Below the pieces are notes generated by a model. It made no database searches, was not told the DNA's origin, and saw only the letters and a list, made by a program, of their open reading frames with translations. From Thermodesulfobacteriota bacterium (GTDB lineage: Bacteria; Desulfobacterota_D; UBA1144; Nemesobacterales; JAJCZQ01), in contig OZ244044.1 in NCBI GenBank assembly GCA_965215275.1, positions 1,056,001 to 1,120,000 of the forward strand: 64,000 nt of DNA. Direction: 5' to 3'. The position numbers were made by a program, and so were the translations under genes. Below are positions 22,634 through 50,554 of this stretch, piece after piece. Position 1 is the stretch's first letter, and every line of letters starts with the position of its first letter.

Positions 22634-22792
22634 ATTACACCTCCGGAACTGGTAGGTCTGATAAAACCTGTAAAATATATGCGAGACTGGGATTTTGTCA
22701 ATTGAAAAAACGGACACGGATAACGGTCGTTTGATCATTAAAAAACTCCGGGCTGGTTAATGCCCGGCGATTTAGTTAACATTCATAAAGCA

Positions 22793-23530
22793 ATGACAGA
22801 GCAGAAACTGATGAACTTTCTGGATCACGTTCAGGAACTCAGAAAAAGGGTCCTTTACGTGCTGATAGCTGTTTTTATATTTTTCATACCGGCTTATTTC
22901 TTCTCAAAGGAAATATTCTCTTTTCTTATGACCCCTATAATCGCAAACCTTCCCAGTGGCAGTTCGATGATATTCATCAGACCAGCTGAAGGGTTTATAA
23001 CTTATTTAAAAGTATCGATCTTTGCTGCCTTCGTTCTTGCCTTTCCCGTTGTTCTTTACCAGGTATGGAGCTTCATATCCCCTGCTCTGTATAAAAGAGA
23101 AAAGAGGATACTGCTTCCCTTTCTTCTGTTCGGAACGATATTTTTTCTCTCCGGCGGTCTGTTCTGCTACTACGTTGCGGCACCAAAGGGATTTGGATTT
23201 TTACTTGGCGAGTATTCAAGTGAATACGTAAAGGCATTTCCAACTATCAGGGAAGGATTATCTTTCCTGATGTCGCTTATGATAGGGTTCGGGCTGGTTT
23301 TTGAATATCCGGTCGTGGTGTTCATGCTGTCAAGATTTGGACTTATCACAGGCAGCTGGCTGAGAAAGCAGAGAAAGTACGCATGGCTTGTAAGTGCAGT
23401 TGTAGCAGCATTTATCACTCCGACGACCGATGCCGTATCAATGATGTTCATGCTCGTGCCCCTGTTCATCTTTTATGAACTGGGAATTTACGTTGCACTG
23501 ATATTCGGCAGAAAAGAACGGGCAGAATAA
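22793..23530 (+). CDS. tatC: Twin-arginine translocase subunit
   Basis: DHVQELRKR, YQVWSFISPALY, GLVFEYP, ITPTTD motifs. Confidence 0.95.
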   Translation: MTEQKLMNFLDHVQELRKRVLYVLIAVFIFFIPAYFFSKEIFSFLMTPIIANLPSGSSMIFIRPAEGFITYLKVSIFAAFVLAFPVVLYQVWSFISPALYKREKRILLPFLLFGTIFFLSGGLFCYYVAAPKGFGFLLGEYSSEYVKAFPTIREGLSFLMSLMIGFGLVFEYPVVVFMLSRFGLITGSWLRKQRKYAWLVSAVVAAFITPTTDAVSMMFMLVPLFIFYELGIYVALIFGRKERAE

Positions 23531-23587
23531 GTGATCCGGCAGAACCGGTCCACCCGTGATCCGAAGGACTGACCCAATGATATCAGA

Positions 23588-24595
23588 TCAGTTACCCAGC
23601 TTTTTTGGAGCAAGCCTGGTCAGGGTTTCCACTATCTGCTCTCTGGAGGCTTTGAACGGGAACATCAAGACAGGACAGTCAACTTCGGACCATAAAGCAT
23701 GCAGTTTTTCCAGAGCGTCTTCCTGCAGGCCGTTTACAGATACGGTATTTGTCAGTTCATCACTGACGCACTTTACCGCAGCCTCCATATCCCTCCTGCC
23801 CCATGCCTCCTTAACTCCGGAGGCGTCGGTCTCAAATCCGTAGCTGCTCACCAGTCTGTTGTAGTAAGGTCCCATTGCACCTACGTAAAACGCAATGAAC
23901 TCCTTCAACCTGTAATTTGCCTGTTCCTGATCATCCGATACCAAAGCCGGTACGTAGGGATAAACCGAAACGTCCTTCACGGCCCGCCCTGCCGTCAGGG
24001 AGGCTTTTTCAACTACATCCCTCAGCTTTATCAGATGACCCACGGGACAGAGGAACGGCAGCCATCCATCGGCGACCTCTCCGGTCATCTGCAGATTTTT
24101 AGGACCGAGCGAGGCAAGATATACGGGAACGTTCCTTCTTACAGGTTCGGACTGCAGCCTGAAGTTTCTGAGCCTGAATATCTCTCCCTCGTAATTTACC
24201 CGTTCACCGCTTAAAATAAGCCTTATTATCTCAACGTATTCCCTGGTCCTCTGAAGAGGTCTTTCATGCCTGGTTCCATGCCAGTTCTCATTTACCAGAC
24301 TGGTGCTTGAACCAAGTCCGAGCACGCTCCTTCCGCCTGATATCAGATCAAGCGTTGCTATGGTCTGTGCCATTACCGCGGGACTTCTGCTGTATATGGA
24401 AACTACACCACTTCCGAACTTTAAACTGTCCGTGTTATGAGCGATCGTTGCCAGTAACGTAAACGCGTCATTTCCCCAGGTTTCAGGAACCCATATGGAA
24501 TCGTAACCAAGCTCTTCTGCAAGTTTTGAGTAAAAAACGACCCCATCCCTGTCGATAGTAGCCCAGTTTGGAAGAACAAAGGCCAGTTTTGACAT
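23588..24595 (-). CDS. LLM-class flavin/F420-dependent oxidoreductase
   Basis: AEELGYDSIWVPE, TLDLISGGRSVLGLG, GEVADG motifs. Confidence 0.9.
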   Translation of the reverse strand: MSKLAFVLPNWATIDRDGVVFYSKLAEELGYDSIWVPETWGNDAFTLLATIAHNTDSLKFGSGVVSIYSRSPAVMAQTIATLDLISGGRSVLGLGSSTSLVNENWHGTRHERPLQRTREYVEIIRLILSGERVNYEGEIFRLRNFRLQSEPVRRNVPVYLASLGPKNLQMTGEVADGWLPFLCPVGHLIKLRDVVEKASLTAGRAVKDVSVYPYVPALVSDDQEQANYRLKEFIAFYVGAMGPYYNRLVSSYGFETDASGVKEAWGRRDMEAAVKCVSDELTNTVSVNGLQEDALEKLHALWSEVDCPVLMFPFKASREQIVETLTRLAPKKLGN

Positions 24596-24689
24596 ACAGG
24601 TACTCCTTTTTTTATTTGAATATCTTGCTGTAAAATAAGAACATAATCAAATTTGCCCGTTTATATGAATTAAAAACAAGGAGAGAAAG

Positions 24690-25901
24690 ATGAGAACGTT
24701 ACCTTCAAGGATGCAGGACAGACTGTACAACGATCAGTTCATCCCGAGCGAAACACTCAGGATGCGGAAAAAATACAGACGCTTTGCCGAAGAAGAGCTG
24801 TTCCCACAGGCATATCAGATCGGTCAGAGGACCGAGGATAATGATAACTTCCCATGGAAGCTTTTCAGATCAATGGCAGAAAAAGGTTTTTTCAAAGTGC
24901 CTTTTAAAAAATCGGAAGGAGGACTGGGATTAAAATATCCAGCCTGTGCAGCAGCAGTTCTTGCAGAGGAACTGGCCTACGTAAGTGCCAGTTTCGCAGG
25001 GTCTGTAAATGCTCATTTTCTGCTTGCGGGAAAAAGTATCAGTTTCGGTTCTGAACACATCAGGAAAAAATATCTAAAACCACTTCTGCAGTGCAGATCG
25101 GTGGGAGCTTTTGCAATGACGGAACCACAGTCGGGATCAGACGTAAGAGCGGATTCACTGATAACAAAAGGGATCAGAAAAGGAAAAAAATACATAATAA
25201 GCGGTCAGAAGAGATATATAACGAACGCAGGGATTGCAGATTACGTTTCAACGCTCGTAAACATTGAAGGCAAGTCCTGCATGCTTGTAATTGATCTGAA
25301 CTCCGAAGGATGCAGAGTAGGCAAGCCGGACAAAAAACTCGGTAACAGAGGGGAACTGACTTACGACATATATTTTAACAACGTTGAGGTTCCCAGGGAA
25401 AATCTGATCGGCAAGGAAGGGGATGGGCTTAAGGTCTGTATAGGTGCCCTGATGTACGGAAGGACGGGAATTGGAGCAAGCGGAACAGGAATGGCACAGT
25501 CGGCTTTTGACGAATGTTCTCAGTTTATGAATAAAAGGGAGGCTTTCGGAAAAAAGATAAACCAGTTCCAGCACTGGCAGTTCTTAATGGCAGAAAGGGC
25601 AATAGAGATCGAGAATGCCAGAAATCTGTATATTAAAAGTGCTCTTGCTATCGATCAGGGAAACAGCTTCCCCGTGATGCTGTCGTCGGGAGCAAAATTC
25701 TACGGTTCGGAGATATCGGTCACTATGGCAAGGGATGCCGTGCAGATATTTGGAGGGTTGGGACTGATGGTCGAACTGGGACATGACGACTCCACTTACA
25801 AGGTTGAAGAGATATACAGAGATTCAAAAGTCGGGGAGATATATGAAGGATCTAATGAAATTCATAAAATGCTTATCGCAAGGGAGATATTTAATTCCTG
25901 A
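24690..25901 (+). CDS. Acyl-CoA dehydrogenase family protein
   Basis: FAMTEPQSGSD, GQKRYITN, REAFGK, IYEGSNEI motifs. Confidence 0.93.
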   Translation: MRTLPSRMQDRLYNDQFIPSETLRMRKKYRRFAEEELFPQAYQIGQRTEDNDNFPWKLFRSMAEKGFFKVPFKKSEGGLGLKYPACAAAVLAEELAYVSASFAGSVNAHFLLAGKSISFGSEHIRKKYLKPLLQCRSVGAFAMTEPQSGSDVRADSLITKGIRKGKKYIISGQKRYITNAGIADYVSTLVNIEGKSCMLVIDLNSEGCRVGKPDKKLGNRGELTYDIYFNNVEVPRENLIGKEGDGLKVCIGALMYGRTGIGASGTGMAQSAFDECSQFMNKREAFGKKINQFQHWQFLMAERAIEIENARNLYIKSALAIDQGNSFPVMLSSGAKFYGSEISVTMARDAVQIFGGLGLMVELGHDDSTYKVEEIYRDSKVGEIYEGSNEIHKMLIAREIFNS

Positions 25902-25971
25902 TGTTGAACTGAAAAAACATTGACTGCCGCCGAAAAACGCTTTTTAAATAGGGAATTATATATTTATCCAC

Positions 25972-26001
25972 TTGACATTCGTTTATAATACGAAGTAAAA
26001 T
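25972..26001 (+). promoter_or_regulatory. Sigma70-type promoter of S8 copy 1
   Basis: TTGACA-18-TAAAAT; conserved at 46130-46159 and 62390-62418; ATG 9 nt after the -10 in all three. Confidence 0.75.
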
Positions 26002-26010
26002 ATAAATGTT

Positions 26011-29000
26011 ATGAAAAATTTCATGAAAAATTCAAACATAAAAACACGTAGTTCCATTACCCCCCCCCCGTGTATACGTGACCTTTCATCTGGATATAAG
26101 TATTTTTTAAGAACAATGTTTAAGATAACCCCCCCCCCCATCTAAGTCATTACTAACCTTAGTCTTATTTATTCTGTGTTTGATAGTAATAGCTGCAAGA
26201 GCAGAGAGCAGCCTGGAAGAAACATTATCTGAATGCAGAGGTATGAGTGCAGATGTGGAAGATCCGTTATACGGATGTCAGTGGCATCTGAAGAACACTG
26301 GGCAGTTTATTTATTCAGGAAAGGAAATAACAGCAGGAGAAGATATAAACATAGAAGGAGTGTGGAACGAAGACGTATACGGTACCGGAATTAACGTAGC
26401 AATAGTAAGTGACGGTATCGACCTTTCACATGAGGACCTTTCTGCAAACGTCCGTTCCGGACCGAACTATAGTTATTCTGAAAGAAATAATTCTGAAGAG
26501 AACAGTTCTGAAAAAGATAGTTCAGAAAGAGATGATCTTTCAGACGGTTCATCCTTTACCGGAACACGAGCGGCAGGTGTTATTGCAGCAACTGGATATA
26601 ACGGACTGGGAGTAAGAGGAACAGCACCGGGTGCGAGTATATACAGTTACAGGTTATCCGGTGATCTCAGGGAAGCGGACGCGGTGGTCCGTAATAAGGA
26701 AATAACAGCTGTATCGGTTAACGGCCTGGGATCTGAGGACGGAGCTTTTTTTCAGGAGGCTTCAACTTCCTGGGAAGAAGGAGTGGAACTTGGAATAAGT
26801 AAAGGGTTTTATGGTAAAGGAGTGTTTTACGTCTGGGGAGCAGGGGACGGTCATGAAAGAGGAGATCAGGCTAATTTTTCTGAATATTCTAATTACTACG
26901 GCGTAACTGCCGTTTGTTCAACTGACGGTTTTGGAAAAAAGAGTATTTTTTCAGAAGAGGGAGTAAATCTATGGGTATGTGCACCTGGTTCTGATATTGT
27001 AACTACTGATAACAAAAACGATTACGTTGTAACTTCCGGAACATTTCTATCAGCTTCACAGGTTGGAGGAGTGGCAGCACTGCTGAGAGAGATAAACGGG
27101 AATCTGAGCTGGAGGGATATAAAGCTTATACTTGCGGGTTCAGCACGGCAGAACGATTTTTTTGATCCGAGCTGGGAGACTGGAGCTGTTAAATACGGTT
27201 CTGATACGGAAAGATATAATTCTAATCCTAAGTATGGTTTTGGCGTGGTAGACGCAGAAGCAGCTGCAGAACTTGCAAAAAGCTGGAAAGGCGTTGGAGA
27301 GATGAGGACCATTACAGCTTCTTCAGATAATGAACTGACAATTCCTGATGGAGATGGAGAAGCGGACGGGGTCCTTGTTTCCAGACTTATGATACCGGAC
27401 CTTGAAGAGGTAACATTTACGGAGTTCGTTGAAGCTGAGCTTGTTCTTTCGTGTGACTGCTTACAGGACCTTAATATACAGATAACCTCTCCTTCCGGGA
27501 CAGTATCTGAACTTGTGCGGGAGGTTGTAAGGGGATCTTCGAATGAAGAAGAAAACTGCGTCAGTTACCTGAGAAGAACACATCGTTTCGGGTCGGCAAG
27601 ACACCTCGGAGAAGACCCTTCCGGAGAATGGATCCTTCATATAACTGATACTGCTTATGGAGATGAAGAAAATGAAGAAAACACCGTTACCCTGCACTCA
27701 TGGAGCGTTAAGGTGTATGGACATTTTTATCAGGGATCTGGCAGTGAGATCACTCCTAAAGCTTTAACCTTCGGCGGTGCGACGATCCCAACCCAGAATT
27801 ATTTTGTAGGAGAAGCAATAACACCAGTAATGCTGCCTGAGGCAACCGGGGCAAGCGACATAACATACAGTTTTAATCCTGCTTTAGCAAGAGGATTGGA
27901 ATTTGATCAGGATACCCGAACTATAAGCGGAACACCAGCTATTACTCATGTGTCAGGTCGTTTGTATTCATATGTTGCAAGAGGTGGCGGACGGATTGTA
28001 ACTATACCTTTTACTATTAGAATTAGCCCTCGACGAGTGCCGACCTTCGGCAATCAGACGGTAGAAAATCAGGTTTTTGTTAATGGTTCAGCAGTAACGT
28101 TAACTCTGCCTCAGGCTACCGGAGGTAACGGAACTTTAAATTACAGTTTAACTAATAGTATAGGTGATCCAATTAAAATTAATGGATTGGATTATAACGA
28201 AAACACCAGAACGTTAAGTGGAACGCTCAACGTTTCTCCAAGTGGATTACCTATAACTCAAACTTATACCTACAAGGTAACTGATGATGACGGTGATTCT
28301 GACAGTATTACTTTCTCTATTACTATAACGGACCTGGCCTTTGAACACTATCCTCTAACTCATCTGATTTTTGTAGCAGGGAGGCAAGTAACACCACAAG
28401 TAGAGCTACCTGAAGCAACTGGAGGGACTGCTCCATTAACTTACAGTTTAACTCCTGATTTACCTCTTGGATTGAGTTTTAATGAAGTTACGCGGGTTAT
28501 AAGTGGCACACCAACTATTGGGATATCTGATACTGATTATACATATACTGTTACTGACGCAGATGGAACTACGGTGGAGTTTACATTTATTGTTCAGATA
28601 AGAGCAAGTTTTGATAATGTAACGATAAATAATAAGGTGTATATAGTCGGTACAGCAGTAACGGAAGTGCTGCCTGAGGCAATTGGACATAATGAAACGG
28701 TAACCACCTACGGTTTAACCCCTACATTACCAGCTGGACTGGACTTTAACACGGCTACCCGAGAGATAAGAGGAACACCGACTACTGCAACGTCTGAGAC
28801 TATGTATACATACAGAGTAGATGACGGAAATGGATTCACTAATGACGATTTAACTTTCAGTATCACGGTAAGGGATGCAACTGTACCTACTTTCAGTGGT
28901 GAGACTATAGATGATCAGGAGCATACAGCAGGGGTTCAGATAACACCAGTAACGCTGCCTGAGGCAACTTCAGGAGATGCTCCGTTAACATACCGTTTAA

Positions 29001-29851
29001 CCCCTGCCTTGCCTGATGGATTGATCTATAACAATATCACCGGAGTTATAAGCGGAACACCGACTGCTGCAATGTCTGAGACTATGTATACATATACAGT
29101 AACGGATAATGATGGAGATACGGATGAACTGACGTTTAATATTGAGGTAGCAGCAAGCTTCAGCAACGTAACGATAGAAGATAAGGTGTATATAGCAGGT
29201 ACAGCAGTAACGGAAATGCTGCCTGAGGCAACTGGACATAATGGAACGGTAACCTACAGTTTAACCCCATCATTACCAGCTGGACTGGACTTTAACACAG
29301 CTACCCGGGAGATAAGTGGAACACCTTCTGCTGCAACGTCTCAGACTACTTATACATATACAGTTACTACTGGTGCAGGAGGACCTGCACGAACTTTGAC
29401 ATTCAGGATAACGATAGAAGAAGACAGCGAACCGGACTTCAGCGTGACGACGATAGAAGATCAGGTGTACATGGGGAGATCAATAAGGTTGCCGGTAGCA
29501 ACGGGAGGGAATGCACCGTTAGTATACAGTATAACGCCTCCCTTACCTCCTAGGTTGAGATTGGACAGAAACACAGGGGTCATAAGCGGGACGCCCGCGA
29601 GTGCGTCGTCTGAGAGGACCTACACGTACACGGTAACGGACAGGGACGGAGACATGAAAGAGTTGACCTTCAGGTTCAGTGCAGCGGCTCCGCCACCGAC
29701 AGGTAGTGATCCAGGCGGAGGTGGAGGAGGATGTGCTGTATCAGAGCAGAGCAGTGTTGATGAAGATATTCTCGGAGTAATGGCATGTCTGATGCTTATA
29801 CCTGTATCAGTAGTTATCAGAAGGAAAAGAAGAGCTCAGATAAAGATGTAG
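26011..29851 (+). CDS. Kexin/furin-like S8 pseudoprotease + P-domain + 7 Ig-like repeats + GGGGC-TM anchor, copy 1 (frameshifted at C11 tract 26129-26139)
   Basis: DPLYGCQWHL, LSWRDIK, YGFGVVDA, P-domain DL.I.ITSPSGT, LP.GL.F....ISGTP repeats; frame from ATG 26011/26116 stops at 26143 unless one C is lost. Confidence 0.88.
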
Positions 29852-30230
29852 TAATGCGGTCCTTTCTTAGGACACTTAACTAACTGAGATCTTTCCCATC
29901 AGAATATCTGCTGGCTGCTTATGGAAGAAGCTATATATCTTTGTTAAAGTCCTTTTTTGATATTCAATTTTCTTATTACCACAAGGATTTAACTACAAGG
30001 TTTTCCACCCGATACGAATATAATCTTGTTAAAAACATCTTTTTTATTCATTTGGCGCAGTTACATATATTATTCCCTTTTAAATAACTGTAATTCGTAA
30101 CGACCTTATTATCTGCCCACTGCTTCATTTACATAACTTTCTATATCGGGAATTTTCGTGCAATGTATAAAATATAATAAAATATTACAACTCTTGTAAT
30201 AAAATATTACACAGCTACAATACTGCCATT

Positions 30231-31040
30231 ATGATCCGGTCAAAGGAACTTGGGGAAAAAATAAGACGGTTAAGACAGGATAATGAGTTGTCTCAGGCAG
30301 AATTAGCCAGCGCTGTTGGTGTAAGCAGGGAAGTTATATCTAACCTTGAAAACGGTTTGAGAATGCCGAAGTTAAATGAGATAAACAGGTTGTCCGAACT
30401 TTTTAGCTGCTCCATTGATGATCTGATAAGTAACAGAGAGAGCGTAAAGATAATCGTAAAAAAAGACAATAAAAACAAGCAAAAGAAAGAGACTTTGAGA
30501 ATAAACGTGCCTCAGAAAAACCTCAGAAAGTTCAAAGAGGTGCTTCTGTACGTTCTGAGCAAGGTAGGTGCAAAACCAAACATAGGTGAGTCAGTTATAC
30601 AGAAGATGCTTTACTTTATTGACTTTGATCATTATGAAAAATACGAAGAGCAGTTGATAGGAGCAACTTACATAAAGAACAAATACGGACCCACACCGGT
30701 CGAGTTCCAGAAAGTCACAGGTTATATGATAGAACACAAAGATATAGTTAAACTTAAAAAAAATCATTTCAATTACGAACAGACAAAGTACCTTCCCTTG
30801 CGTAACGCCGACCTCACGGTTTTGAACGCAAACGAAGTGGAGACTATTAATAATGTCCTTGTAAGATTATCTGATATGAACGAAGATCAGATCTTACGGT
30901 ATTCACACAATGACATACCTTGGCTTGGAACCGAAGATGAAAAGACGATTGATTATGAAGCCGTTTTTTACAGAACTCCCGCATACTCAGTAAGACCACA
31001 TATTGAAGAAGATCAGAACGGAAGAGCTAACGGATTTTAA
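30231..31040 (+). CDS. XRE HTH + DUF4065 (Panacea/SocA-like) antitoxin
   Basis: LSQAELA..VGVSRE.ISNLENG HTH; QKMLYFIDF, YGPTP, SHNDIPW motifs. Confidence 0.85.
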   Translation: MIRSKELGEKIRRLRQDNELSQAELASAVGVSREVISNLENGLRMPKLNEINRLSELFSCSIDDLISNRESVKIIVKKDNKNKQKKETLRINVPQKNLRKFKEVLLYVLSKVGAKPNIGESVIQKMLYFIDFDHYEKYEEQLIGATYIKNKYGPTPVEFQKVTGYMIEHKDIVKLKKNHFNYEQTKYLPLRNADLTVLNANEVETINNVLVRLSDMNEDQILRYSHNDIPWLGTEDEKTIDYEAVFYRTPAYSVRPHIEEDQNGRANGF

Positions 31041-31369
31041 AAAAGACCTTAAAAAACTGATAAAAAGATTCCGAACGCTCGAAGAAGACCTGCAAATCTT
31101 TATCCAGTATCAGTTGAACCCGTTTCATCTTATGGGTCAGGACAGCAACGGTATAAAGCGCATAAGTGGTCTGGGGATCAAGAACCCTGAAATATACAAA
31201 ACAAGAAAGTTTGCATGTAAGTCGTTAAAAGGAAGGGGAAATAAATCTGGAATAAGAGTTGTTTACTCTTATCTTTAAAGACGAAGACAGGATCGAACTC
31301 GTTGAGGTCTACTTCAAGGGCGATAAAACATCAGAGGACAGAGATCGTATCAGAAAACTTTATGGTTAA
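31003..31369 (+). pseudogene. RelE-like toxin, frameshifted near 31273
   Basis: FKKDLKKL.KRFRTL..DL...CKSLKGRGNKSGIRVVY, then shifted frame FKDEDRIELVEVYFKGDKTSEDRDRIRKLYG*. Confidence 0.75.
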
Positions 31370-31422
31370 TCCCTGACGCAGTAAAGATAATGCAGATCGA
31401 AATTCTTTATTAAAGAATAAAG

Positions 31423-31448
31423 TCACCCCCTGAAAATACAGGGGGTGA
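31423..31448. terminator. Bidirectional intrinsic terminator between convergent genes
   Basis: TCACCCCCTG-aaaata-CAGGGGGTGA. Confidence 0.8.
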
Positions 31449-31458
31449 TATAATGATA

Positions 31459-32370
31459 TTAATTAGTTGGACAGGATGATCGACGCTCAGCAAATACAAC
31501 ACCAACAGCAGAACCTTCTAAACCATCCTCCAAGGTAATACTGTCTTCAAATGCCCCTCCCTAGGTACCTGCAAGGTATCCACCATTACTTCCAAAGAAC
31601 TGAGCTCCCCAATTCCCGGTAGCATTTGACCTAGTTCCTGGAATGTTTTCTATAGCAGTAGTTCCAGAATAAAGCAATTCGTTTCCACCTGATCCCGCTG
31701 TAGCTTGCTCAAGAATTACCCTAACTGTAGTTTGACCAGGAATTCCTTCTATACCGGTAATTAAACCACGTATAGTTCCATCATCTGCTAGGGTCAAAAC
31801 AGCCACTCCTTCCAGTCTTATATGATGAGAAGTCACTCCATTTGCACTAACGGTATAATATACTATAGCATCACCTGTATAACACGTGTCTGCATTTACA
31901 CTTGGAATATCTGTCTGTGGAGTTTCACTTTCAGTTAATTCATCTACAGCCATTCCCCAGACCTCGCCATAAGTCCATATACCAAATACTAATCGGTCGC
32001 CTATATTAAATTCAGGTACTCTATCAGAATTGAGACCTGTAAACATCTCCGCACGTGCAGGAGATGAATCATCTGATGAAAAACAACTACCTTCATTACA
32101 GGTCAGCGTTATATCACCATTATCAGTAGTAATGTCAACACTAATTGAACCACTGCTAATACTGACAGAAACTGTATCTTGCGTAATATTATTATTATCA
32201 GCTCTGCTGCCTTGTATAACGCTGCCGTAAACAGGTTTATTTTTAGCCACGTCTATAGCTGCTTCACTGGATGGCCTTAAAGACGTCAAAGATCCATCAT
32301 CTGAATCACATCCATAACCACCTGAAACTATTATAAGAAAACATAACAACACTATAAGTCTGTACTTCAT
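31459..32370 (-). pseudogene. Surface lipoprotein with TbpB/fHbp-like C-terminal barrel, premature TAG at 31561-31563
   Basis: Lipobox-like GYGC; GNWGAQFFGSNGGYLAGT*GGAF...AVGVFAERR reads through the stop to 31459. Confidence 0.65.
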
Positions 32371-32543
32371 TATTTAATACCTCCTTGCTCTTGATCTCAA
32401 TGTTTTCAGTACCAATCGGGAACCCATGTTCGTCCGTCCCGCCCGATACAGATAGAAATCTACTGAAATACCACCTCTATCTAATTCATAATTGTAAATT
32501 TTTGTCAAGCAATTTCCATATAATTCCCTTATTCAGACCAGCC

Positions 32544-33806
32544 TCATCTTAACTGCTTGATAAACTCGTCTTTGGGAACCATGTAGTAAAGCTTTCCCCA
32601 GTGTTTTAATACGCCGGCATGCTGGCCGGATTCTTCTCCCCTGCCCCAGAACAGATCAACCCGGTGAGGTCCTTTTATTGCCCCGCCAGTGTCCTGGTCC
32701 AGAACAAACCTTGACGTATTGTTCCACTTGCTGGGTACCTCTGAAAGTCTGTTGGGAAATACAGGCTTTGGAAATTCCATATACGCCAAGGCACCTTTGG
32801 GATAGAAACGCCTGTCGGTGGCTATGGTCCTGCCATCCACGACTTCCGTGCCAAAATGGGTGATAGGTCTGCCTTTTAATTTCCTGAAGAAAATATAGCT
32901 TGGGTTCTGATATAATATCTTCTTCATTTCTTCTTCCGGCAGACTTCTCAGATAGCTTTTGAGGTTATGTGCGGTCAGTTTATCCCTTGGTATCTTATCA
33001 TAAACCAGCCTGCCTATACTGACGTACCTGCGACCGTTCTGTGAGGCATATCCGAGTCTGAGTTCCTCACCGTTGCTGAACTTTACGGCACCTGAACCCT
33101 GTATCTGTAAAAAAAAGGCATCAATCGGGTCGACCCATGCCAGTTTGGTCGCCTTTCTTTCCAGAACCTTCCGCTCGTCTATCTCTTTCCTGGTGTAGTA
33201 GGGAACAATGTTCTTACTCGTTCCCTTATGATAAGAAGGAGCTATCCTGCCAGCCAGAATGGACAGATTATACTTGGGATTTATTATCTGTTCCCTGATC
33301 GGCTTCAGTCTGCTCAGCTGTTTCGCGTATTTCTTCAGGTGAACGTTCACAAGGTCGTCCGGAGTGGAATAAATTGGCTGAGTGTGTTTGGAGTTCCGCC
33401 TTTTTGAACCTTTCAGCACAGGTTCATAATATGAAGTTATAAAGACCTCTCCCCATTCTTTACTGCCGTAAACCTCATAAAAATCAAAACTGGAATTAAC
33501 TATCTCGTAAAATTCTTCCTTTGATATCCCAGAGCGTATCTCTCCGGCGAGGTAATTGAGCGAAAGAATGTAATCATCACGTGAGACCTTTTTCGGACCA
33601 AACGTTAAAGAGGAGGCCTTTGACCTGCGCAGGCGAGAGATGTTGTCCTTTATACCCTTTAACAGTCCATCAAGAGGAAGGTCGTCCACAAGGCTTGGCG
33701 GAACCGGTGCCTGCCTCATGGCCTGCTCAGCAGTTTCGGATGGTTTTCTCTCACATGAAACCGTCAGAAAGAAAATGACAAAAAGTGCAAGGATAACTTT
33801 CATCAT
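32544..33806 (-). CDS. mltA: Membrane-bound lytic murein transglycosylase A
   Basis: TSYYEP, LQIQGSG, NPSYIFF, QDTGGAIKG..RVDLFWG; lipoprotein start MMKVIL...VSC. Confidence 0.93.
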   Translation of the reverse strand: MMKVILALFVIFFLTVSCERKPSETAEQAMRQAPVPPSLVDDLPLDGLLKGIKDNISRLRRSKASSLTFGPKKVSRDDYILSLNYLAGEIRSGISKEEFYEIVNSSFDFYEVYGSKEWGEVFITSYYEPVLKGSKRRNSKHTQPIYSTPDDLVNVHLKKYAKQLSRLKPIREQIINPKYNLSILAGRIAPSYHKGTSKNIVPYYTRKEIDERKVLERKATKLAWVDPIDAFFLQIQGSGAVKFSNGEELRLGYASQNGRRYVSIGRLVYDKIPRDKLTAHNLKSYLRSLPEEEMKKILYQNPSYIFFRKLKGRPITHFGTEVVDGRTIATDRRFYPKGALAYMEFPKPVFPNRLSEVPSKWNNTSRFVLDQDTGGAIKGPHRVDLFWGRGEESGQHAGVLKHWGKLYYMVPKDEFIKQLR

Positions 33807-34085
33807 CTTTATTTTACAAACTACACCTGAATAGACAAGGGAAAACGGCATTTTCATCATAAAAAAACAACAGGACCTTATGAACAGAACGGTCAAAACC
33901 GGCTGCCAGGACCATTGACCATAAAATATGTAAGGGGTGCATTTAACGTTTAAATACCACACAAGGTTCCTTGATACCGACGCCGATCATTGAGCCTGGT
34001 TCACAGCAGCGTCTTGCTCGTCCCGTTCTTTACTTCATAAACAGGAAATTCTGAAAAACTTTCTCGATCATTTAAAATATCTTAA

Positions 34086-35900
34086 ATGATCGAACCAAAA
34101 AGATCCCTCCTTAAGGACCTCCCGAGAAAAACGGGTATATACCTGATGAAGAACGCGTCGGGTAAGCCTGTCTATATAGGTAAGGCAAAGAACATAAAGG
34201 CCAGAGCCACATCTTATTTCAATATGAGCGGGAGCGGCAGACCTCACATAGATCTTTTAATAAACGAACTTGAAACCATTGATTTTATCGTTACAAAAGA
34301 TGAAAGAGAGGCTCTCATACTTGAAAACTCACTGATTAAGACCTATAAACCAAAGTTCAACCTCAAACTTAAGGACGATAAGAACTATTCATTCCTGACA
34401 TTGACCGTAAAGGACAGGTTCCCAAAACTCATAACTACCAGAAGGGTGAAAGAGAACGGGGATATGTACTATGGACCGTTTGCGTACGGAGGTGCCCTGA
34501 AACAGACAAAAAGGCTCATTCACTCGCTGTTCGGTATCAGGGACTGCAGCGATGGGAAGTTCAGAAGATACAGGCAGAGACCCTGCCTGAACCACGACCT
34601 TGATCTCTGTCTCGGACCCTGTGCAAATAAAGTGGACAGGGAAACGTACCTTGATTCGGTAGAACGAGCCAAGACGTTTCTGAACGGAGATAAAAAGGCA
34701 CTTATAAAAACCTTAAAGAAAAATATGGAAAGAGCCTCAAGGGATGAAAGGTTCGAGCAGGCTATCGACCTTCGCGATAAGATCAGACTGCTCGAAAAGG
34801 ACCTTGAGGTGACCAAAGTGCTGTCATCCAGCCTTAATGACAGGGACATTATAGGACTTCATCAAAGTTCCGGTATTTACGCGGTCGTCGTTATGTCCTT
34901 CAGGTTCGGAGCAATGGCAGGCAGTCAGGAATATATGTTCTATAACCTGTATCATGACAAAAAGGAAGTGATGCAGCAGTTCTTAAGCCGCTTTTATCAG
35001 GGAGGCAGGTATATTCCAAAGGAAATACTTATAAACGTCAGAATTGACGGCACAGGTGCGTACAGGGACTGGCTTTGTGAAAAAGCAGGTAAAAAAGTAT
35101 CCGTTACCGTGCCAAAGCACGGAGCAAAACACAAACTCATCGAGCTTGCAGAAAAGAACGCAGAGGAGAACATCAGAAGGAAAACAGAGGCAAGAACAAA
35201 CAATTTAGCCATTCTGGAATCCTTGAAGAACTCCCTTTCTTTAAAACGCACGCCAAGGACCATTGAGTGCTATGACGTATCAAATATGCAGGTAAAGAAC
35301 GTCGTTGCTTCCCTTGTAAGGTTTCTGGATGGAGAACCTGACAAAAGCAGGTACAGAAAATATAAAATAAAGACCGTTACCGGACAGGACGACTATGCAA
35401 GTATGTCCGAGGTGCTGAGCAGACGCTTTAAAAGGATCGGACAGGACGGCTGGGAACTCCCGGACATGATAATGATAGACGGTGGCAAGGGACAGCTGGG
35501 CTCGGCGGCAAAGGCAATAAAAGAACTGGGTTATCTGGATAAGGTCGACCTTATATCGATAGCCAAGGGGAAAAAACAGGGAGAGATGGATAAAATATAC
35601 GTTCATGGTAAAAAAGAACCCTGCTTAATGAACCATAACAAGGACGGTCTGTACCTTCTGATGAGGATCAGGGACGAGGCTCACAGGTCAGCCATCACGT
35701 ACCATAAGCAGAGCAGGGCAAAAACGTTCACTTCCTCGGGTCTTGATAACGTGACCGGTATCGGCAAGAAACGAAGGACGCTGCTGCTGAACCGTTTTGG
35801 AGATTTAAACAAGATAAGGTCCGCCACACTTGAGGATATCGCATCTCTCCCCGGTATGAACGCAAAGATCGCCTCGGATATAAAGAAGATATTTCACTGA
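34086..35900 (+). CDS. uvrC: Excinuclease ABC subunit C
   Basis: GIY..YIGKA, IECYDVS, IDGGKGQL, RDEAHR, HhH motifs. Confidence 0.97.
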   Translation: MIEPKRSLLKDLPRKTGIYLMKNASGKPVYIGKAKNIKARATSYFNMSGSGRPHIDLLINELETIDFIVTKDEREALILENSLIKTYKPKFNLKLKDDKNYSFLTLTVKDRFPKLITTRRVKENGDMYYGPFAYGGALKQTKRLIHSLFGIRDCSDGKFRRYRQRPCLNHDLDLCLGPCANKVDRETYLDSVERAKTFLNGDKKALIKTLKKNMERASRDERFEQAIDLRDKIRLLEKDLEVTKVLSSSLNDRDIIGLHQSSGIYAVVVMSFRFGAMAGSQEYMFYNLYHDKKEVMQQFLSRFYQGGRYIPKEILINVRIDGTGAYRDWLCEKAGKKVSVTVPKHGAKHKLIELAEKNAEENIRRKTEARTNNLAILESLKNSLSLKRTPRTIECYDVSNMQVKNVVASLVRFLDGEPDKSRYRKYKIKTVTGQDDYASMSEVLSRRFKRIGQDGWELPDMIMIDGGKGQLGSAAKAIKELGYLDKVDLISIAKGKKQGEMDKIYVHGKKEPCLMNHNKDGLYLLMRIRDEAHRSAITYHKQSRAKTFTSSGLDNVTGIGKKRRTLLLNRFGDLNKIRSATLEDIASLPGMNAKIASDIKKIFH

Positions 35901-38894: not shown

Positions 38895-39018
38895 ATTTAT
38901 CCAGCCGCCTTTAATTGTGAAAAAGATGAATATATATTATGGGAATTATATACTCTGTTAGACAAAGACAGGCAAATAGCTTTGATAGTGCTGTAAAATT
39001 AGGGAATTATATATAGAT

Positions 39019-40473: not shown

Positions 40474-40501
40474 TATTTGTATAATAGAGTATATAATTCC
40501 C
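40371..40501 (+). ncRNA. Putative TnpB omega/reRNA scaffold overlapping tnpB 3' end
   Basis: Stems TCGGG/CCCGA (40372/40398), TGCAAGC/GCTTGCA (40403/40452), AGAGTC/GACTCT (40391/40446); position typical of TnpB guide scaffolds. Confidence 0.5.
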
Positions 40502-42225: not shown

Positions 42226-42383
42226 AATATATAAAAGCAGATAAACAGTGTTCAGTCAGCACAAGCCGAATTATTTAATTTGGGAATTATATACAATAGT
42301 GACGAAGCCTCCAATAAATAGTTGACAAACTATAGATTTGTCATTATTACAGGTAAGAAAATTAAATAACTGGAGGAAGTTAT

Positions 42384-43325
42384 ATGTCAAAGAAAGCACC
42401 TGGGAAATCATACAGGAAAGGGATATCGTTAGTAAAGTTATTCAGGAAATTCCCTTCTGATGCTGTTGCAGAGGAATGGTTTGTAAAACAGAGGTGGGGA
42501 AAGGAACCCGTATGTCCGTATTGCGGGACAAGAAACGTTCAGACCGGGACTGGTCATAAGACAATGCCGTACAGGTACAGGGAAAAAGGACGTTCGAAAT
42601 GGTTCAGTGCAAGGAGCAGGACAGTTATGCAGTCTTCTAATATCAGGTATCAGGCTTGGGCAGTGGCAATATATCTTTTTGCCACGTCATTAAAGGGAGT
42701 ATCAAGTATGAAACTGCATAGAGATCTGGATATTACGCATAGGTCAGCATGGCATTTATCGCATCGTATCAGAGAGGCGTGGAACAGAGAAGAACTGCAA
42801 GTGTTTACAGGCTCCGTGGAGGCAGATGAGACGTTTACAGGTGGAAAGGAGAGAAACAAGCATAACAACAGGCGTAGTCATACACGAGGACCTGGAGGGA
42901 AGTCCATTGTTGCAGGAATGAAGAACAGAGAGACAAACAGGGTAACAGCACAACCGGTTTCTGAACGTAGTAAAGAGGAAATACAGGGTTTTACAGTTAA
43001 GAACGCAGGTAGTGGAGTAAAAACATATACCGATGATCATAAAAGCTATACAGGGTTGCCTTATGAGCATGAGAGCGTGGATCATAGTGTAAGGGAGTAC
43101 GTTAAAGAGCAGGCACATGTAAACGGAGTGGGATCGTTCCGGGCAATGTTAAAAAGAGGATATACCGGCACGTACCACAGAATGAGTAAAAAGCATTTAA
43201 ATCGTTATGTAAATGAGTTTTCGGGGAGGCATAATATAAGAAGACTGGACACGGAAGATCAGATGGGAACAACAGCAAGGGCAATGTATGGAAAGACCTT
43301 GCCTTATAAAGAACTGATAAGGTAA
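42384..43325 (+). CDS. IS1595 transposase, probably inactive
   Basis: VEADET, YTDD motifs present; third catalytic motif reads NGVGSFR instead of NxxESFW; second Cys pair of the zinc ribbon lost. Confidence 0.88.
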   Translation: MSKKAPGKSYRKGISLVKLFRKFPSDAVAEEWFVKQRWGKEPVCPYCGTRNVQTGTGHKTMPYRYREKGRSKWFSARSRTVMQSSNIRYQAWAVAIYLFATSLKGVSSMKLHRDLDITHRSAWHLSHRIREAWNREELQVFTGSVEADETFTGGKERNKHNNRRSHTRGPGGKSIVAGMKNRETNRVTAQPVSERSKEEIQGFTVKNAGSGVKTYTDDHKSYTGLPYEHESVDHSVREYVKEQAHVNGVGSFRAMLKRGYTGTYHRMSKKHLNRYVNEFSGRHNIRRLDTEDQMGTTARAMYGKTLPYKELIR

Positions 43326-43377
43326 TATGAATAATGTTACAGGATAAAAAACAGACCAAAAAACAAAGAAACTTGCA

Positions 43378-43566
43378 ATGACGAACAGGAAAAAAACAAT
43401 AGAGATCTTGCCAGGCAGTTATGAACCGACAGAAGAAGAGAAAGAGCATCCGTTTTCTATTGATACAACTCCGCAAAAGTCAGCAAAAGCTATCCTCCAG
43501 CCTGTCAACGTTAAAAAGAAGGATGTAAAGAAACACGTTGCTGAACGTTCAAAAAACAGGAAATGA
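43378..43566 (+). CDS. Small basic passenger protein in IS1595
   Basis: 62-aa ORF between transposase stop and right TIR. Confidence 0.55.
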   Translation: MTNRKKTIEILPGSYEPTEEEKEHPFSIDTTPQKSAKAILQPVNVKKKDVKKHVAERSKNRK

Positions 43567-43663
43567 TCCAGGTTTCGTCACTATTGTATATAATTCCCAT
43601 TTAATTTAACTGTCTCAAATACTTTTATTTTTGATATAACTTACTGAAATAATTTAGTTTTTA

Positions 43664-44814: not shown

Positions 44815-44855
44815 GGGAACTATATAGGAAAGTTGACAAAATCCCATAACTCCCT

Positions 44856-45041
44856 TTAATCATTAACTTCTTTTATAAGAGGATTTCCTTTAGGATCTAC
44901 TACTAATTTAAACCTTTTTTTCAGTTCTTCTTTGGTTGGTTTTTTAGGTCGTTTATGCGGGATCGAACCCATTTTTAACAACATCTTTGATGCTTTATCT
45001 ATTGCTTGTTCTTTTTCTTTTTTTGCTTTTAATCTTTTCAT
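44856..45041 (-). CDS. Small basic passenger protein in IS1595
   Basis: 61-aa Lys-rich ORF downstream of transposase, inside TIRs. Confidence 0.55.
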   Translation of the reverse strand: MKRLKAKKEKEQAIDKASKMLLKMGSIPHKRPKKPTKEELKKRFKLVVDPKGNPLIKEVND

Positions 45042-45095
45042 TATAAAACAAATAACTATTAAATATGATCAAGACTCCTCCATCATATGTCATCA

Positions 45096-46017
45096 TTACT
45101 GTGTTAACTCTTCAAAGGTTATAGTTTTTCCTGCCATATTTCTAAAAAGTGCATCCAGTTGATCTTGCGTGTCTGTTTTTACATTACCTTCATTTAACCT
45201 GAACGAAAACTCATCTATATATTTCTTAAGATGTTTTTTATTCCAATTGTGATATACACCTTTGTATCCACCCTTTAATACTGCCCAGACACTTTCAACC
45301 CCGTTTGTAGAAGCCATCGTATTTACAAACTCTTTTGCCCAATGATCGACCGTCTTATGCTCAAATTCTCTATCTGATAAACCTCTGTATCCTCTATGCT
45401 CATCTGTGTATATAATGGAACCTTCTGCAATGTTCTCTTTTATCTCTCTTGAAAGAGTTTCACTCTCTCTGTTCCGGATCACTTTTGCTCTGGTTCTGCC
45501 TCCCTTCTCCCTCATACCTGATATACAGACCTTTCCTGCAACTCCTCTGCCTTTATTTCGTTTCTTGCTCCCGTGCTTGTTCTTCTCAAGTCCACCTATG
45601 TATGTCTCGTCTATCTCTACTTCTCCTTTCAATAATACTTCCATATTACTTCCACAAGCAAGTCGCAACCTATGCAGCATATACCAGGCTGTTGTCTGGG
45701 TTACTTCTAACTCCTTGCTCAACTGTAAACTGCTTATTCCCTTTCGGGAAGTCATAAGCAAATATCCTGCAAATATCCACTTCCGCATACTCAAGTGGAG
45801 TGCCTGTTAAAGCAGTAAAATAACTCCGGCATTCCTTACACCAATACCTGCCATATGGTTTCTTCTGTCGTGTTATTTTCTTGCTGCTTCCACACTTTGT
45901 GCAGTTTATTTTCTTTCCCCAGCGTAATCCCTCAAAATACTTAATTACAGATTCTTTTGCAGGATACTTTTCCATTAACCCAAATAAACTGACCGTCTTC
46001 ACATGTCTTTTTTTCAT
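45096..46017 (-). pseudogene. IS1595 transposase, frameshift near 45790
   Basis: CTKCG/CKEC zinc ribbon in one frame; KGISS, EIDETY, YTDE, NGVESVW in another. Confidence 0.9.
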
Positions 46018-46168
46018 ACAATAAATATGATCTTCTATCATCTCTTGTCAACTCTTGTGTCAATATATCCCCTGTTTTGTCAACTTCCCTATATAGTTCC
46101 CTAAGAAAGGAAAGAGAAAGACGTTATACTTGACATTCGTTCATAATACCTGGTAAAATAAAAGAGTT

Positions 46169-49100
46169 ATGAAAAGTTCAAACATAAAAACACGTAGTTC
46201 CATTACCCCCCCCCCCCGTGTATACCTGACCTTTCAGCCTGGTATAAATATTTTGTAAGAACAATGTTTAAGATAATCCCCCCCCCATCTAAGTTATTAC
46301 TAACCTTAGTCTTTATTCTACTGAGTATCATGGTCATAGCTGCAAAAGGGCAGAGCAGCCTGGAAGAAACATTATCTGAATGCAGAGATATCAGTGCAGG
46401 TCTGGAAGATCCGTTATACGGATGTCAGTGGCATCTGAATAACACTGGACAGTTAAGTATTTCCGGAAAGAGAATAACAGCAGGAGAAGATATTAACGCA
46501 GAGGGAGTATGGAACGAAGAGGTATATGGTACTGGAATTAACGTAGCAGTTGTAAGTAATGGAATAGACCTTTCACATGAGGACCTTTCTGCTAAGGTCC
46601 GTTCGGAACTGAACTACAACTTTTCTGGAAAAGATAATTCAGACAGTTCAGAGTTAAGTGGTACACGAGCGGCAGGAGTAACGGCAGCGGCTGGATATAA
46701 CGGACTGGGAACAAGAGGAGTTGCACCTGGTGCGAGTATATACAGTAATAAGTTAACAGGAGATCTCAGGGAATCAGACGCAATGGAAGCAGGGGAAGCA
46801 ATGGTGCGTAATAAAGAAATAACTGCAGTATCCGTCAGCGACCGGGGATCTGAGGACGGAGTTTTTCTTCAGGGTGCTTCGGCTGAGTGGGAAGAGGGAG
46901 TGGAAGAGGGTATAAGGGAAGGGTTTTACGGCAGGGGAATATTTTACGTCCTGGGAGCAGGGGACGGACATGAGAGCGGAGATCAGGCTAATTTTTCTGA
47001 ATATTCCAATTACTACGGGGTAACAGCGGTGTGTTCAACGGACGGTTCTGGAAAGAAGAGCTTGTTTTCAGAAGAGGGAGTGAATCTGTGGGTATGTGCG
47101 CCTGGTCCTGATATAGCGACCACTGATAGCGACGACGATCACGCCGTGACGTCCGGAACTGTCCTTTCAGTTTCACGGGTCGCAGGTGTGGCGGCACTGC
47201 TGAGAGAGGTAAACGAAGACCTGAGCTGGAGGGATATAAAGCTTATACTTGCGGGTTCGGCACGGCAGAACGACGTTCCTGACATTAGCTGGGAGACTGG
47301 AGCGGTAAAATACGGTTCCGACGTGGAAAGATACAGATACAGTTCGAAATACGGTTTTGGCGTGGTGGACGCGGAGGCGGCCGCAGAGCTTGCCGGAAGC
47401 TGGAAAGGAGTGGGAGAAATGAGGACCGTTACAGCTTCCTCGGATAATGAACTGACGATCCCTGATGGAGAAGGAGAGGCGGACGGGGTCCTTACCTCCA
47501 GACTTATGATTTCGGACCTGGAGGAAATATTTACGGAGTTCGTTGAGGTAGAACTCGTTCTCTCGTGTGACTGCCTGCAGGACCTCAATATACGGATAAC
47601 CTCTCCTTCCGGGACAGTATCGGAACTTGTGCGGGAGTCTGCCAGTGAGTTTGTAAGGGGATCTTCGAATGAAGAAAACGACTGCGTCAGTTACCTGGGG
47701 AAAAAACATCGTTTCGGTTCGGCAAGACACCTCGGGGAAGACCCTTCCGGAGAATGGACCCTTAAGATATATAATACTGCTTCCGGAGATGAAGAAGATA
47801 CAGAAAATACCGTTACCCTGCACTCATGGAGCATCAGGGTATACGGGCACGGGAAGGAAGATACTTTAACGGACTTTGGCGGGGAGATCACTGCCAAGGC
47901 TTTAACTTTGGGTAATGTTCCTGGTGGTAGGCTGACCTGGACGCAACATAAGCTGGTAAACGCAAGGTTATTCGAGGCAGCCGGAGGCAGGCCGCCGTAT
48001 ACTTACAGTTTAGCTCCTTTACCTCCTGGATTGAATTTTAACGGAACCACCAGAATTATAAACGGGAGACCGACCGCTGCAGGTGACACCGACGTTCAGT
48101 ATACGGCAAGAGACGCAAATAACGATACGGCACGGAGTGACTTCGTTATAAGGATAACGGCGAACGCCGCGCCGGTTTTTGGCAGCAAGACGGTTGCTGC
48201 TCAGGTGTACACGGCAAGGAAAGCAATAGAACCATTGGAACTTCCCGAGGCAACGGGAGGGGATGGAACCTTGACTTACAATATAAGTGGTAACGTCAGG
48301 GGTATAGGGTTGAACTTTAACCGTAACACAAGGATACTGAGCGGAATGCCCACCAGTGTTACGCCTGGTATTACAGCCGTTTATACCGCCACTGACGCAG
48401 ATGGAGATACTGCCGAGCTGAGGTTCAATATACGGGTAAGACATCAGAACGACATACCGACCTTCGGCAGTCAGATGGTAGATGATCAGAATTGGGTTAA
48501 CGGCAGTGCGGTAAGGCTAACGCTGCCTCGTGCAAGAAACGGGAATGGAACGTTAACCTACGGTATAACCCCTGCTTTGCCTGATGGACTGGACTTTGAT
48601 CCTGGTACCAGAGTGCTGAGCGGAACACCGACCGCTGCGGCACCTGAGAACACTTACACGTATACGGTAACGGACAGTGATAACGATATTCATGAAAGTG
48701 ATTCTGACAGTCTGACCTTCAGGATAAGAATAAAAGCTGCAACTGAAGTCCCAAGTTTCGGCAGTCAGACGGTAGGTAATAAGATTTATACAGCAGGGGT
48801 TCAAATATCACCATTCACGTTACCTCTTGCAACGCAAGGAACTGGAATTACACTCAGGTTAACCCCTCGTTTACCTTCCGGATTGAATTTTAACCATGCT
48901 ACCGGAGAGATAAGTGGAATACCGACCACTGCAACGTCTGAGACTGATTATACATGGAGAGCAACGGACAGAGACGGATATACGGCTGAGATAACGTTCA
49001 GTATAACGATAAGAGCAGCAGACACGGAACCGACCTTCGGCGGTGAGACGACGGATGATCAGGAATACGTGGCAGGAAGTCAGATAACGCCGGTAACGCT

Positions 49101-50043
49101 GCCAGTGGCAACGGGAGGAAATGCTCCGTTAGCCTACGGTATAACCCCTGATCTGCCTGCTGGACTGGACTTTGATGAAAACGCCCGAGTGCTGAGCGGA
49201 ACACCTACTACTGCAACGAGTAAGAATACCTATACATATACTGTAACGGACGAAGATGGAGACACGGATGAAATTGAGTTCGGTATCACCGTGTCGGAGG
49301 ACACAATGCCGACCTTCGACGGTGAGACGATAGAAGACAAGGTGACCGTTAACGGCGTTACAGAAGTAATGGAAACGCTGCCTCTTGCAACAGGAGGGAA
49401 CGGAACGCTGACTTACAGTTTAACTGATGCCGGTTCAAATGCTTTGAATTTATTTGCCGGACTGGACTGGGATGACAACACCCGGGTGCTGAGCGGAACA
49501 CCCAATATCGGTTCAGCGCTGCTTCATCTGCTTCCTCGAACCGAGACTTACACGTGGACGGTAACGGACGAAGATGGAGATACAGCAGAGATAACGTTCA
49601 GTATAGTAATAGAAGAAGACAGCATGCCGGAATTCAGTGTGACGACGATAGAAGATCAGGTGTACAGGGGGAGATCAATAATGTTGCCGGTAGCAACGGG
49701 AGGGAATGCACCGTTAGTATACAGTATAACGCCTCCCTTACCTCCTGTATTGAGATTGAACGAAAACACCGGGGTAATAAGCGGGACGTCCGTCCGTGCG
49801 TCATCTGCTGCTACTTACAGGTATACGGTAACGGACAGGGACGGAGACATGAAAGAGTTGACCTTCAGGTTCAGTGCAGCGGCTCCGCCACCGACAAGTA
49901 GTAATTCAGGCGGAGGTGGAGGATGTGCTGTATCAGATCAGAGCATCGCCATTTTTGATATTCTCGGAGTAATGGCATGTCTGATACTTATACCCGTGTC
50001 TGTAATTATCAGAAGGAAAAGAAGATCTCAGATAAAGACTTAG
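46169..50043 (+). CDS. S8 pseudoprotease surface protein copy 2 (open from ATG 46264; leader from ATG 46169 out of frame at C12)
   Basis: 1259-aa ORF with signal peptide, S8, P-domain, 7 Ig-like repeats, GGGGGC-TM-RRKRR tail. Confidence 0.9.
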
Positions 50044-50554
50044 TAATGAGGTCCTTTCAAAGGTATTGAACTAACCAAGATATTTCCCATCAGAATATTT
50101 GCTGGTTGCTTACGGGAGAAGAAGTGGTATCTCCATAGTTAAAGTCCTCTTTTTCTTTTGATCTTCAATGTTCTTATTACCACAAGGTTTTCCACCCGAT
50201 ACAAATATGATACTGTTAAAAACGTCTTTTTTATTCATTTGGCGGAGTTAGCTATATAATTTCCTAAATAATGTTTACTGTAAGCTATTCAAGGCAGAAA
50301 TCAGTCCACAAATTACAGTTCCAATTATAAACACGCCTAGCCGGAGTGGAAAATCTTAAACAAATTGTGGAAAAAACATGTTGTAATAGTTTGCAAAGTG
50401 ATAGATTCATCACCTTCTCAACCCCTACATCAAAAACCAAAAACACAATAAAGGTCACTTATAGGAACGAACCTGTTTTTGACATATACCTGATGATCTT
50501 CCTGAAACTAAAAACTTAAATCCTGATATAAACCATCAAGGTCCATTACAACTC

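Follow-up and report, generated by a model that had tools for sequence, protein, structure and literature searches.

Mobile insertion cassettes (MICs) have been defined as a class (PMC4337579; PMC3129680), and several systems resemble the locus described here. In Xanthomonas, Ferreira et al. (2015; PMC4337579) report that 55 (45%) of their transcription activator-like effector (TALE) genes are carried in cassettes; the ends belong to the Tn3 family (TnXax1) and are 33-97 bp long, and the duplications measure 5 bp. Other copies are described there with a solo end beside them, some have target duplications, tandem clusters occur, and duplication is given as a second route. Mobilisation in trans has been shown experimentally for MIC231 by IS231 (IS4 family) in Bacillus cereus (as cited in the accessible parts of PMC4337579 and PMC3129680). 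Within the IS1595 family of insertion sequences (IS), MTnSag1 (tISSag10) and tISCpe8 carry passenger genes between ends of ~25 bp, with an 8-bp duplication in AT-rich targets, while a circular intermediate has been reported and replicative excision suggested (PMC5704250, text available). Transposase-free restriction-modification units with inverted ends, 8-bp duplications and empty sites are described in the portion of PMC2853133 consulted. Here we describe a 64,000-nucleotide stretch, hereafter the window, of the genome of a Thermodesulfobacteriota bacterium (GCA_965215275.1, contig OZ244044.1, positions 1,056,001 to 1,120,000; window position + 1,056,000 = genome position), in which a gene for a predicted surface protein lies in a transposase-free unit between IS1595-type ends. 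Among the named best matches to the window's UvrC are Thermodesulfobacteriota (68%) and Ca. Dadabacteria (51-52%), from which the host probably belongs to Ca. Dadabacteria.

Structure of the cassette

The unit is 4,127 bp in length (25951-30077) and is flanked on both sides by the 9-bp direct repeat TTTTAAATA, with the junctions reading TTTTAAATA (25942-25950), GGGAATTATATATTTA from 25951, TACATATATTATTCCC to 30077 and TTTTAAATA (30078-30086). The initial annotation had proposed that these repeats and ends bracket exactly the promoter, the S8/Ig gene and about 225 bp of 3′ flank; this is borne out, with 226 bp of 3′ flank inside the unit. Given the local base composition, two specified ends would be flanked by a 9/9 duplication by chance with a probability of ~1e-5. 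The features are as follows.

25942..25950, + strand: left copy of the target duplication, TTTTAAATA (9 bp), from the sequence; the X1 and X2 contigs (below) skip the element and one copy
25951..25966, + strand: left IS1595-type end, GGGAATTATATATTTA, 16 bp only, followed by the promoter region
25972..26001, + strand: sigma-70-like promoter TTGACA-18-TAAAAT, from a consensus match; kept in many paralogues
26060..26069, + strand: C10 tract, the first of two poly-C runs, on the 5′ side of the likely ATG
26116..26139, + strand: likely start ATG (26116) and C11 run (26129-26139), the length of which puts the gene out of frame, with a stop at codon 10
26180..29851, + strand: cargo open reading frame (ORF), 1223 aa, with S8 domain, P domain, five He_PIG domains and a C-terminal tail, from domain matches
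29852..30053, + strand: 3′ non-coding flank, common to paralogues as far as the right end
30054..30077, - strand: right IS1595-type end, inward reading GGGAATAATATATGTAACTGCGCC; best match 18/24, to the ends of an intact transporter IS at genome 1812584-1815955
30078..30086, + strand: right copy of the target duplication, TTTTAAATA, from the sequence

The two ends are identical at 14 of their first 16 bases and at 16/24 overall. The window contains 15 instances of the end motif GGGAWTWATATA (≤1 mismatch), compared to a mean of 1.34 in 100 shuffles. Promoter-like sites of the TTGACA-18-TAAAAT kind show no enrichment over shuffles. The left end is a short form in which 16 bases are followed by the promoter, and is resembled by that of paralogue g44; g24, g38 and g39 have ~44 extra bases between two TATATTTA words. 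When compared to the ~25-bp ends of IS1595 elements, the right end fits over 24 bp (18/24 to the best IS) and the left over 16 bp only, while sister copies reach 21-22/24. No transposase remnant was found inside the unit by tblastn with the 31 IS1595 transposase ORFs of the genome as queries (best E 0.16). Without an IS1595 transposase, the unit is therefore a non-autonomous derivative, neither an IS nor a transporter IS. An autonomous IS or transporter IS of this family was rejected as an identity, as a zinc-ribbon/DDE transposase is missing, and so was a miniature inverted-repeat transposable element, given the 4.1 kb length and the 1223-aa ORF. IS-type ends, the lack of a transposase of its own, and a target duplication with an empty site, the joint of which is inferred from coordinates, place it among the MICs.

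The empty site in a related strain

Four of the six public runs containing all or part of the stretch were compared over window positions 22700-34100. In run X1 (record 3), positions 24405-25941 are followed directly by 30078-34100 at consecutive record positions 1537/1538, and the same join is found on the opposite strand in X2 (record 8; record positions 12121-8886 followed by 8885-4875). The 4,136 bases skipped equal 4,127 + 9, the element and one copy of the repeat. The X1 and X2 contigs differ from the window at 73/3,236 and 107/4,023 positions (~97.5% identity), and hence derive from a close strain or sister species. The empty site anticipated by the initial annotation is thus present in a related strain, with the flanks joined directly and the exact length missing. 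Contigs of X3 and X6 read through each junction into the cassette without a single difference and may represent the window's own source. In the same-family genomes, no empty site for the focal locus was found at the nucleotide level, there being no match in G001 and another gene downstream in G002 and G003.

It is close to certain that the focal copy was inserted by IS1595-type transposition. The insertion lies after the acyl-CoA dehydrogenase gene, and the enzyme was likely an IS1595 transposase acting in trans.

A single contig of depth 2.4 in X2 (record 14) spans 30047-30197 across the right junction, though the main X2 contig has the empty site; this one low-depth contig may reflect a filled allele carried by a minority in the sample. 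In X1 and X2 the S8 core is covered at ~10-35x the depth of the flanks, a hint that the family is multicopy in the related strain as well, although this depth does not equal a copy number.

Paralogues and their ends across the genome

A query with the S8 region returned 58 matches, corresponding to 57 genes which occupy 172,746 bp, or 8.7% of the 1.99-Mb genome. Ends were scored with a model built from 12 ends adjoining transposases, the cassettes themselves not being used; the thresholds of 8, 10 and 12 were chosen after the scores had been viewed, and all three are given. Paralogue g6, fused to a 1.9-kb upstream frame, was omitted from the end counts (n=56). At a score of 8, a left end is found at 30/56 paralogues, a right end at 33/56, both at 17/56 and at least one at 46/56, compared to 114/784, 64/784 and 18/784 control ORFs with a left end, a right end and both, respectively. 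The 17 two-ended copies include one with a perfect duplication, five with at most one mismatch and eight with at most two, where a null of 973 cross-pairs gives 0.0%, 0.6% and 4.0%, and none of 20,000 permutations reached the observed counts. At a score of 10, a duplication is present in 4/10 two-ended copies, while a wider search out to 1.5 kb recovers one in 7/72 end pairs, against 1.0% in the null. IS1595-type ends with duplications are accordingly found at many other paralogues far more often than chance would give, so that both tests named in the initial annotation, this one and the empty site, favour its reading.

The duplicated word varies from copy to copy (TAAATTAA, AATTGTTG, CATCTTTT, TTTCTTTT and TAAGATTT), as expected of a DDE transposase, and flank homology among many paralogues ends at the end motif. 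Duplication-bearing copies fall on three separate branches of the family tree, a quick tree that recombination makes unreliable. The twin cassettes g32 and g46 use a second end family; their right flanks are 98.9% identical over 760 bp and lie in different targets, with the target repeats CATCTTTT/CATCTTTC at g32 and an 8/8 duplication (TTTCTTTT/TTTCTTTT) at g46. Over their last 207 bp, both share 84% identity with an end of the IS1595 element at window position 44815.

Seven two-ended loci were compared with the same-genus genome G001 (~80% identity). Near-exact empty sites are found at 3/7 of these: at g26 and g39 the flanks abut with ~7-10 overlapping bases, and at g51 they nearly abut, with a gap of 56 against 4,590. 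The same-family genome G002 lacks g39 (gap 35) as well as the whole 42282-50264 block.

No match to the S8 region was obtained in four same-family genomes, the negative for G001 being weak as this fragmented assembly reaches a completeness of 80%; in 119 other genomes of the phylum, three yielded one weak, partial match each and the rest none. The nearest relatives found share 37-44% identity and come mostly from Dehalococcoidia genomes, while scans of JGI metagenomes and of GTDB gave only relatives of 30-44% (24 and 6 loci, respectively). No IS1595 transposase was found near relatives in 28 loci (L023-L050, the two weakest, L051-L052, being omitted), which contain one isolated end-like match; the end model is specific to the focal genome, so this count carries little weight.

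Among the 57 paralogues, 43 are on the + strand, those on the - strand being concentrated in the first 800 kb of the genome. A different surface gene in G001 (L130:1505-4689; contig C16) has a 946-aa frame, a strong right and a weak left end, a 7/8 duplication (TTAAGTTA/TAAAGTTA) and a G8 run near its start; by eye, its product has a Gly-rich lipoprotein-like start with Ig-like and leucine-rich-looking repeats, and similar genes are present on contigs C36 and C6. Contig C4 of G001 (L128:337-3144) carries an intact-looking IS1595 transporter element with a methylase-like cargo, the end family of window 44815 and the 8-bp duplication CAAAATAA.

IS1595 elements and candidate transposase

The genome contains 28 matches to the IS1595 DDE family and 13 full-length transposases. 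The N-G-x-E glutamate is kept in eight of the 13, seven of which also have both zinc-ribbon cysteine pairs, and both pairs together with the conserved acidic motifs are seen in the alignment of 7/13, which look intact; we take these CxxC and acidic residues to be those required for catalysis. Two IS1595 elements and a second copy of the gene are found further along the window.

42282..43598, + strand: IS1595 with 26-bp ends, the 9-bp duplication ATTTAATTT and a transposase (42384-43325) that is probably inactive
44815..46101, - strand: second IS1595, its transposase split into two ORFs, abutting copy 2 on the upstream side
46264..50264, + strand: copy 2 (g34), an in-frame paralogue ORF (46264-50043) with the homologous 3′ flank and a right end

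The element at 42282 had been matched to the cassette by both end motif and duplication length. Its 9-bp duplication ATTTAATTT stands, but the likeness of the ends is restricted to the first 12 terminal bases, after which the 26-bp repeat continues as CAATAGTGACGAAG, absent from the cassette. As its transposase (42384) has lost the second CxxC and the third acidic residue, it was rejected as the mobiliser, which it probably was not. Genome-wide, 25 of the 28 paired elements with a duplication are best read as 8 bp and three as 9 bp, making 9 bp the exception in this genome; sister cassettes have 8 bp as well. Only two of the 9-bp duplications are perfect, those of 42282-43598 and 25951-30077. 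These two elements are separated by 16 kb, and each is likely to need a transposase provided in trans. At genome 540452 there is an intact sister of the 42282 element, with a duplication of 8 bp.

The intact transporter IS at genome 1812584-1815955 provides the best or tied-best match for 13 of the 18 cassette ends compared over 24 bases, with up to 22/24 identical; for the focal cassette the values are 17/24 (left) and 18/24 (right). The transposase of this IS (genome 1814933-1815877) is the best candidate for the enzyme on the basis of these end comparisons. The homologous 3′ flank (183/239 aligned columns identical) and right end (50253-50264) reported for copy 2 by the initial annotation were both recovered. 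Copy 2 has neither a left end of its own nor a duplication. The IS1595 at 44815-46101, directly upstream of it, comes with no matching duplication, and its end family is that used by g32 and g46.

Ends of these kinds also enclose other cargo. TnpB genes (all 3/3 ORFs examined), TPR genes and ABC genes are found between them in the absence of a transposase, whereas methylase genes are accompanied by a transposase. In the window, a TnpB gene (39019-40473) lies between IS1595-type ends (38941-40501) without a matching duplication, while several TnpB-only sister elements elsewhere in the genome have perfect 8-bp duplications. A transposase-free unit with IS1595-type ends at genome 17470-21955 (L136) contains an ABC ATPase gene and two TPR genes and has a perfect 8-bp duplication, and another at 1897941-1900957 (L137) contains an ABC ATPase gene. 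No partner was found for the right-end motifs at window 13296-13307 and 32517-32528, which are orphans. A gene for an HTH and SocA/Panacea antitoxin-like protein (window 30231-31040) is located just right of the cassette insertion site, and after it, near 31030-31280, comes an unannotated stretch that by eye looks RelE-like.

Cargo protein

The S8 and P region of the cargo protein aligns to furin (E 5e-36) and kexin (E 8e-32). At the positions aligned to furin's Asp-His-Ser triad and oxyanion Asn, roles which we take as given, the cargo has Ser, Thr and Phe, and Asp, respectively. An active S8B (kexin/furin-like) protease was hence rejected, all catalytic residues being replaced, and by its alignment the cargo is a predicted furin-like pseudo-protease. 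The triad is kept in 7/57 paralogues, none of them among the duplication-bearing copies. The C-terminal tail combines Gly-rich, Cys, hydrophobic and basic stretches, while the product of copy 2, which reads in frame from this ATG, has a hydrophobic leader at its start. Leader, Ig-like repeats and hydrophobic tail together lead us to predict a surface location and a host-directed role. Among 22 copies with the conserved ATG, four are in frame, including copy 2, and 18 are out of frame, counts in which homopolymer assembly error may play a part. When 26751-28150 is divided into consecutive 200-bp tiles, these show 100% identity to one paralogue after another (g21, g32, g1, g27 and g0), which indicates gene conversion, and no single paralogue matches the whole focal unit. 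These tracts point to the focal cargo being a probable mosaic formed by gene conversion.

Origin of the family

We propose that IS1595 transposition accounts for a major share of the spread of this family, alongside recombination, and assign this reading a probability of about 0.86. The transposase would bind the short terminal repeats and paste a copy comprising promoter, gene and 3′ flank into AT-rich intergenic DNA, with duplication of eight target bases (nine at the focal site); transposition is probably replicative, judging from the available text of PMC5704250, and would raise the copy number. The IS family at window 44815 would be the source of the second end family, that of g32 and g46. 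Once dispersed, the copies probably exchange coding segments and ends by homologous recombination, and poly-C slippage would probably switch single copies on and off. The outcome would be a surface coat that varies, built of protease folds, most of them inactive, on Ig-like stalks.

The ends, duplications and empty sites agree with the initial proposal that the family was amplified by IS1595 transposition, but other routes have been taken as well, as 10/56 copies lack any end, 11/56 neighbouring pairs start within 8 kb of each other and coding tracts are shared at 100% identity. Several observations weigh against the proposal. More than two mismatches are found in the repeats of 9/17 two-ended copies, and at the strictest threshold (12) only 1/5 two-ended copies have a duplication with at most one mismatch; from such mismatched duplications, the endless copies and the close pairs it follows that tandem duplication and recombination also contribute. 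The 9-bp duplication of the focal cassette is atypical for the genome, no genome element has ends identical to its own (best 17-18/24), and it has no identical donor copy. X1 and X2 come from one single study, and the single TTTTAAATA at their joint is deduced from coordinates rather than from displayed letters. The seven loci compared with G001 were preselected for having both ends; the empty site of g38 is approximate only (170 against 2,852), the gene is absent at g24 and g29 where there are other indels, and g36 falls at a contig break.

Much of this would also suit an origin in which transposition seeded only some founder copies. Tandem duplication and homologous recombination would then account for most of the 57-copy expansion, and the ends would for the most part be relics that travelled with the flanking DNA. 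The identical tiles of the focal copy, the close pairs and endless copies, and a duplication recognisable in only 5-8 of the 17 two-ended copies are all in its favour, as is the same mix in Xanthomonas TALEs in the available text of Ferreira et al. (PMC4337579). We nevertheless consider it unlikely, as 45/56 neighbouring pairs are more than 8 kb apart, at least one end is retained in 46/56 copies, the focal copy is polymorphic between close strains, and recombination alone does not make new sites with site-specific duplications. That the gene is ancestral at the site and was lost in the related strain by slippage between chance 9-bp repeats, or that the difference is an assembly artefact, is very improbable: the repeats lie exactly at both IS-type ends (chance ~1e-5), X3 and X6 contigs cover both junctions, and the family was not found in four same-family genomes, even though TTTTAAATA occurs 97 times in the genome and synteny with an outgroup across the whole site is lacking (the upstream gene is without a match in G001, and the downstream gene is a different one in G002 and G003). 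Site-specific integration also yields direct repeats and a single-copy empty site, but an integrase with TTTTAAATA as its attachment core is scarcely credible when the duplicated word is different at every copy and the repeats abut inverted ends common to IS1595 elements.

A further step beyond IS1595 transposition as a major route would be that the lineage has co-opted these ends as a permanent machinery for varying its surface coat, with transposition in trans setting copy number and position (still strain-polymorphic), gene conversion shuffling domains and ends, and poly-C runs picking the few of 57 mostly inactive furin-like proteins that are displayed. We advance this tentatively, at somewhat under even odds. 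Were it true, 16 bp of left end would suffice to move 4 kb, and another surface family (leucine-rich repeat/Ig) may rely on these ends in a sister species.

Comparison with known systems

No report of IS1595 cassettes spreading a surface-protein family, or of the family of this lineage, was found in a literature search outside of which most subscription journals fall. The locus offers a concrete and testable mechanism by which a small-genome, uncultured bacterium could build a family amounting to 8.7% of its DNA, at a scale not found in 119 other genomes of the phylum. For IS1595, a family little studied mechanistically, it further provides a set of naturally occurring end variants, from 16 to 24 bp, together with specific transposases as candidates.

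The MIC is an already known kind of element. The present case departs from the TALE cassettes in its IS family, in how short its ends are, in its cargo, in its scale within a single small genome and in the additional frame gating. As in MIC231, a passenger gene lies between IS ends without a transposase of its own, but the IS family is different, mobilisation in trans is here predicted, and a large expansion of a single family is not described in the accessible accounts of that system. MTnSag1 and tISCpe8, as presented in the available text, encode their own transposase, unlike the present cassette, which lacks one and differs also in its left end of 16 bp and its duplication of 9 bp. The restriction-modification units of PMC2853133 share the same anatomy and the same kind of empty-site evidence in the portion consulted, but are single insertions, whereas here a paralogue family is dispersed.

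The closest parallel is the TALE MICs of Xanthomonas, in which, going by the available text, a host-facing, repeat-rich multigene family is likewise carried in transposase-free cassettes. The present family differs from these in its IS1595 ends of 16-24 bp and duplications of 8-9 bp, in encoding a predicted surface pseudo-protease rather than an injected effector, and in its 57 copies in one 2-Mb genome combined with poly-C frame gating. The TALE-cassette model is thereby extended from Tn3 to IS1595 ends, with empty-site support at the base-pair level.

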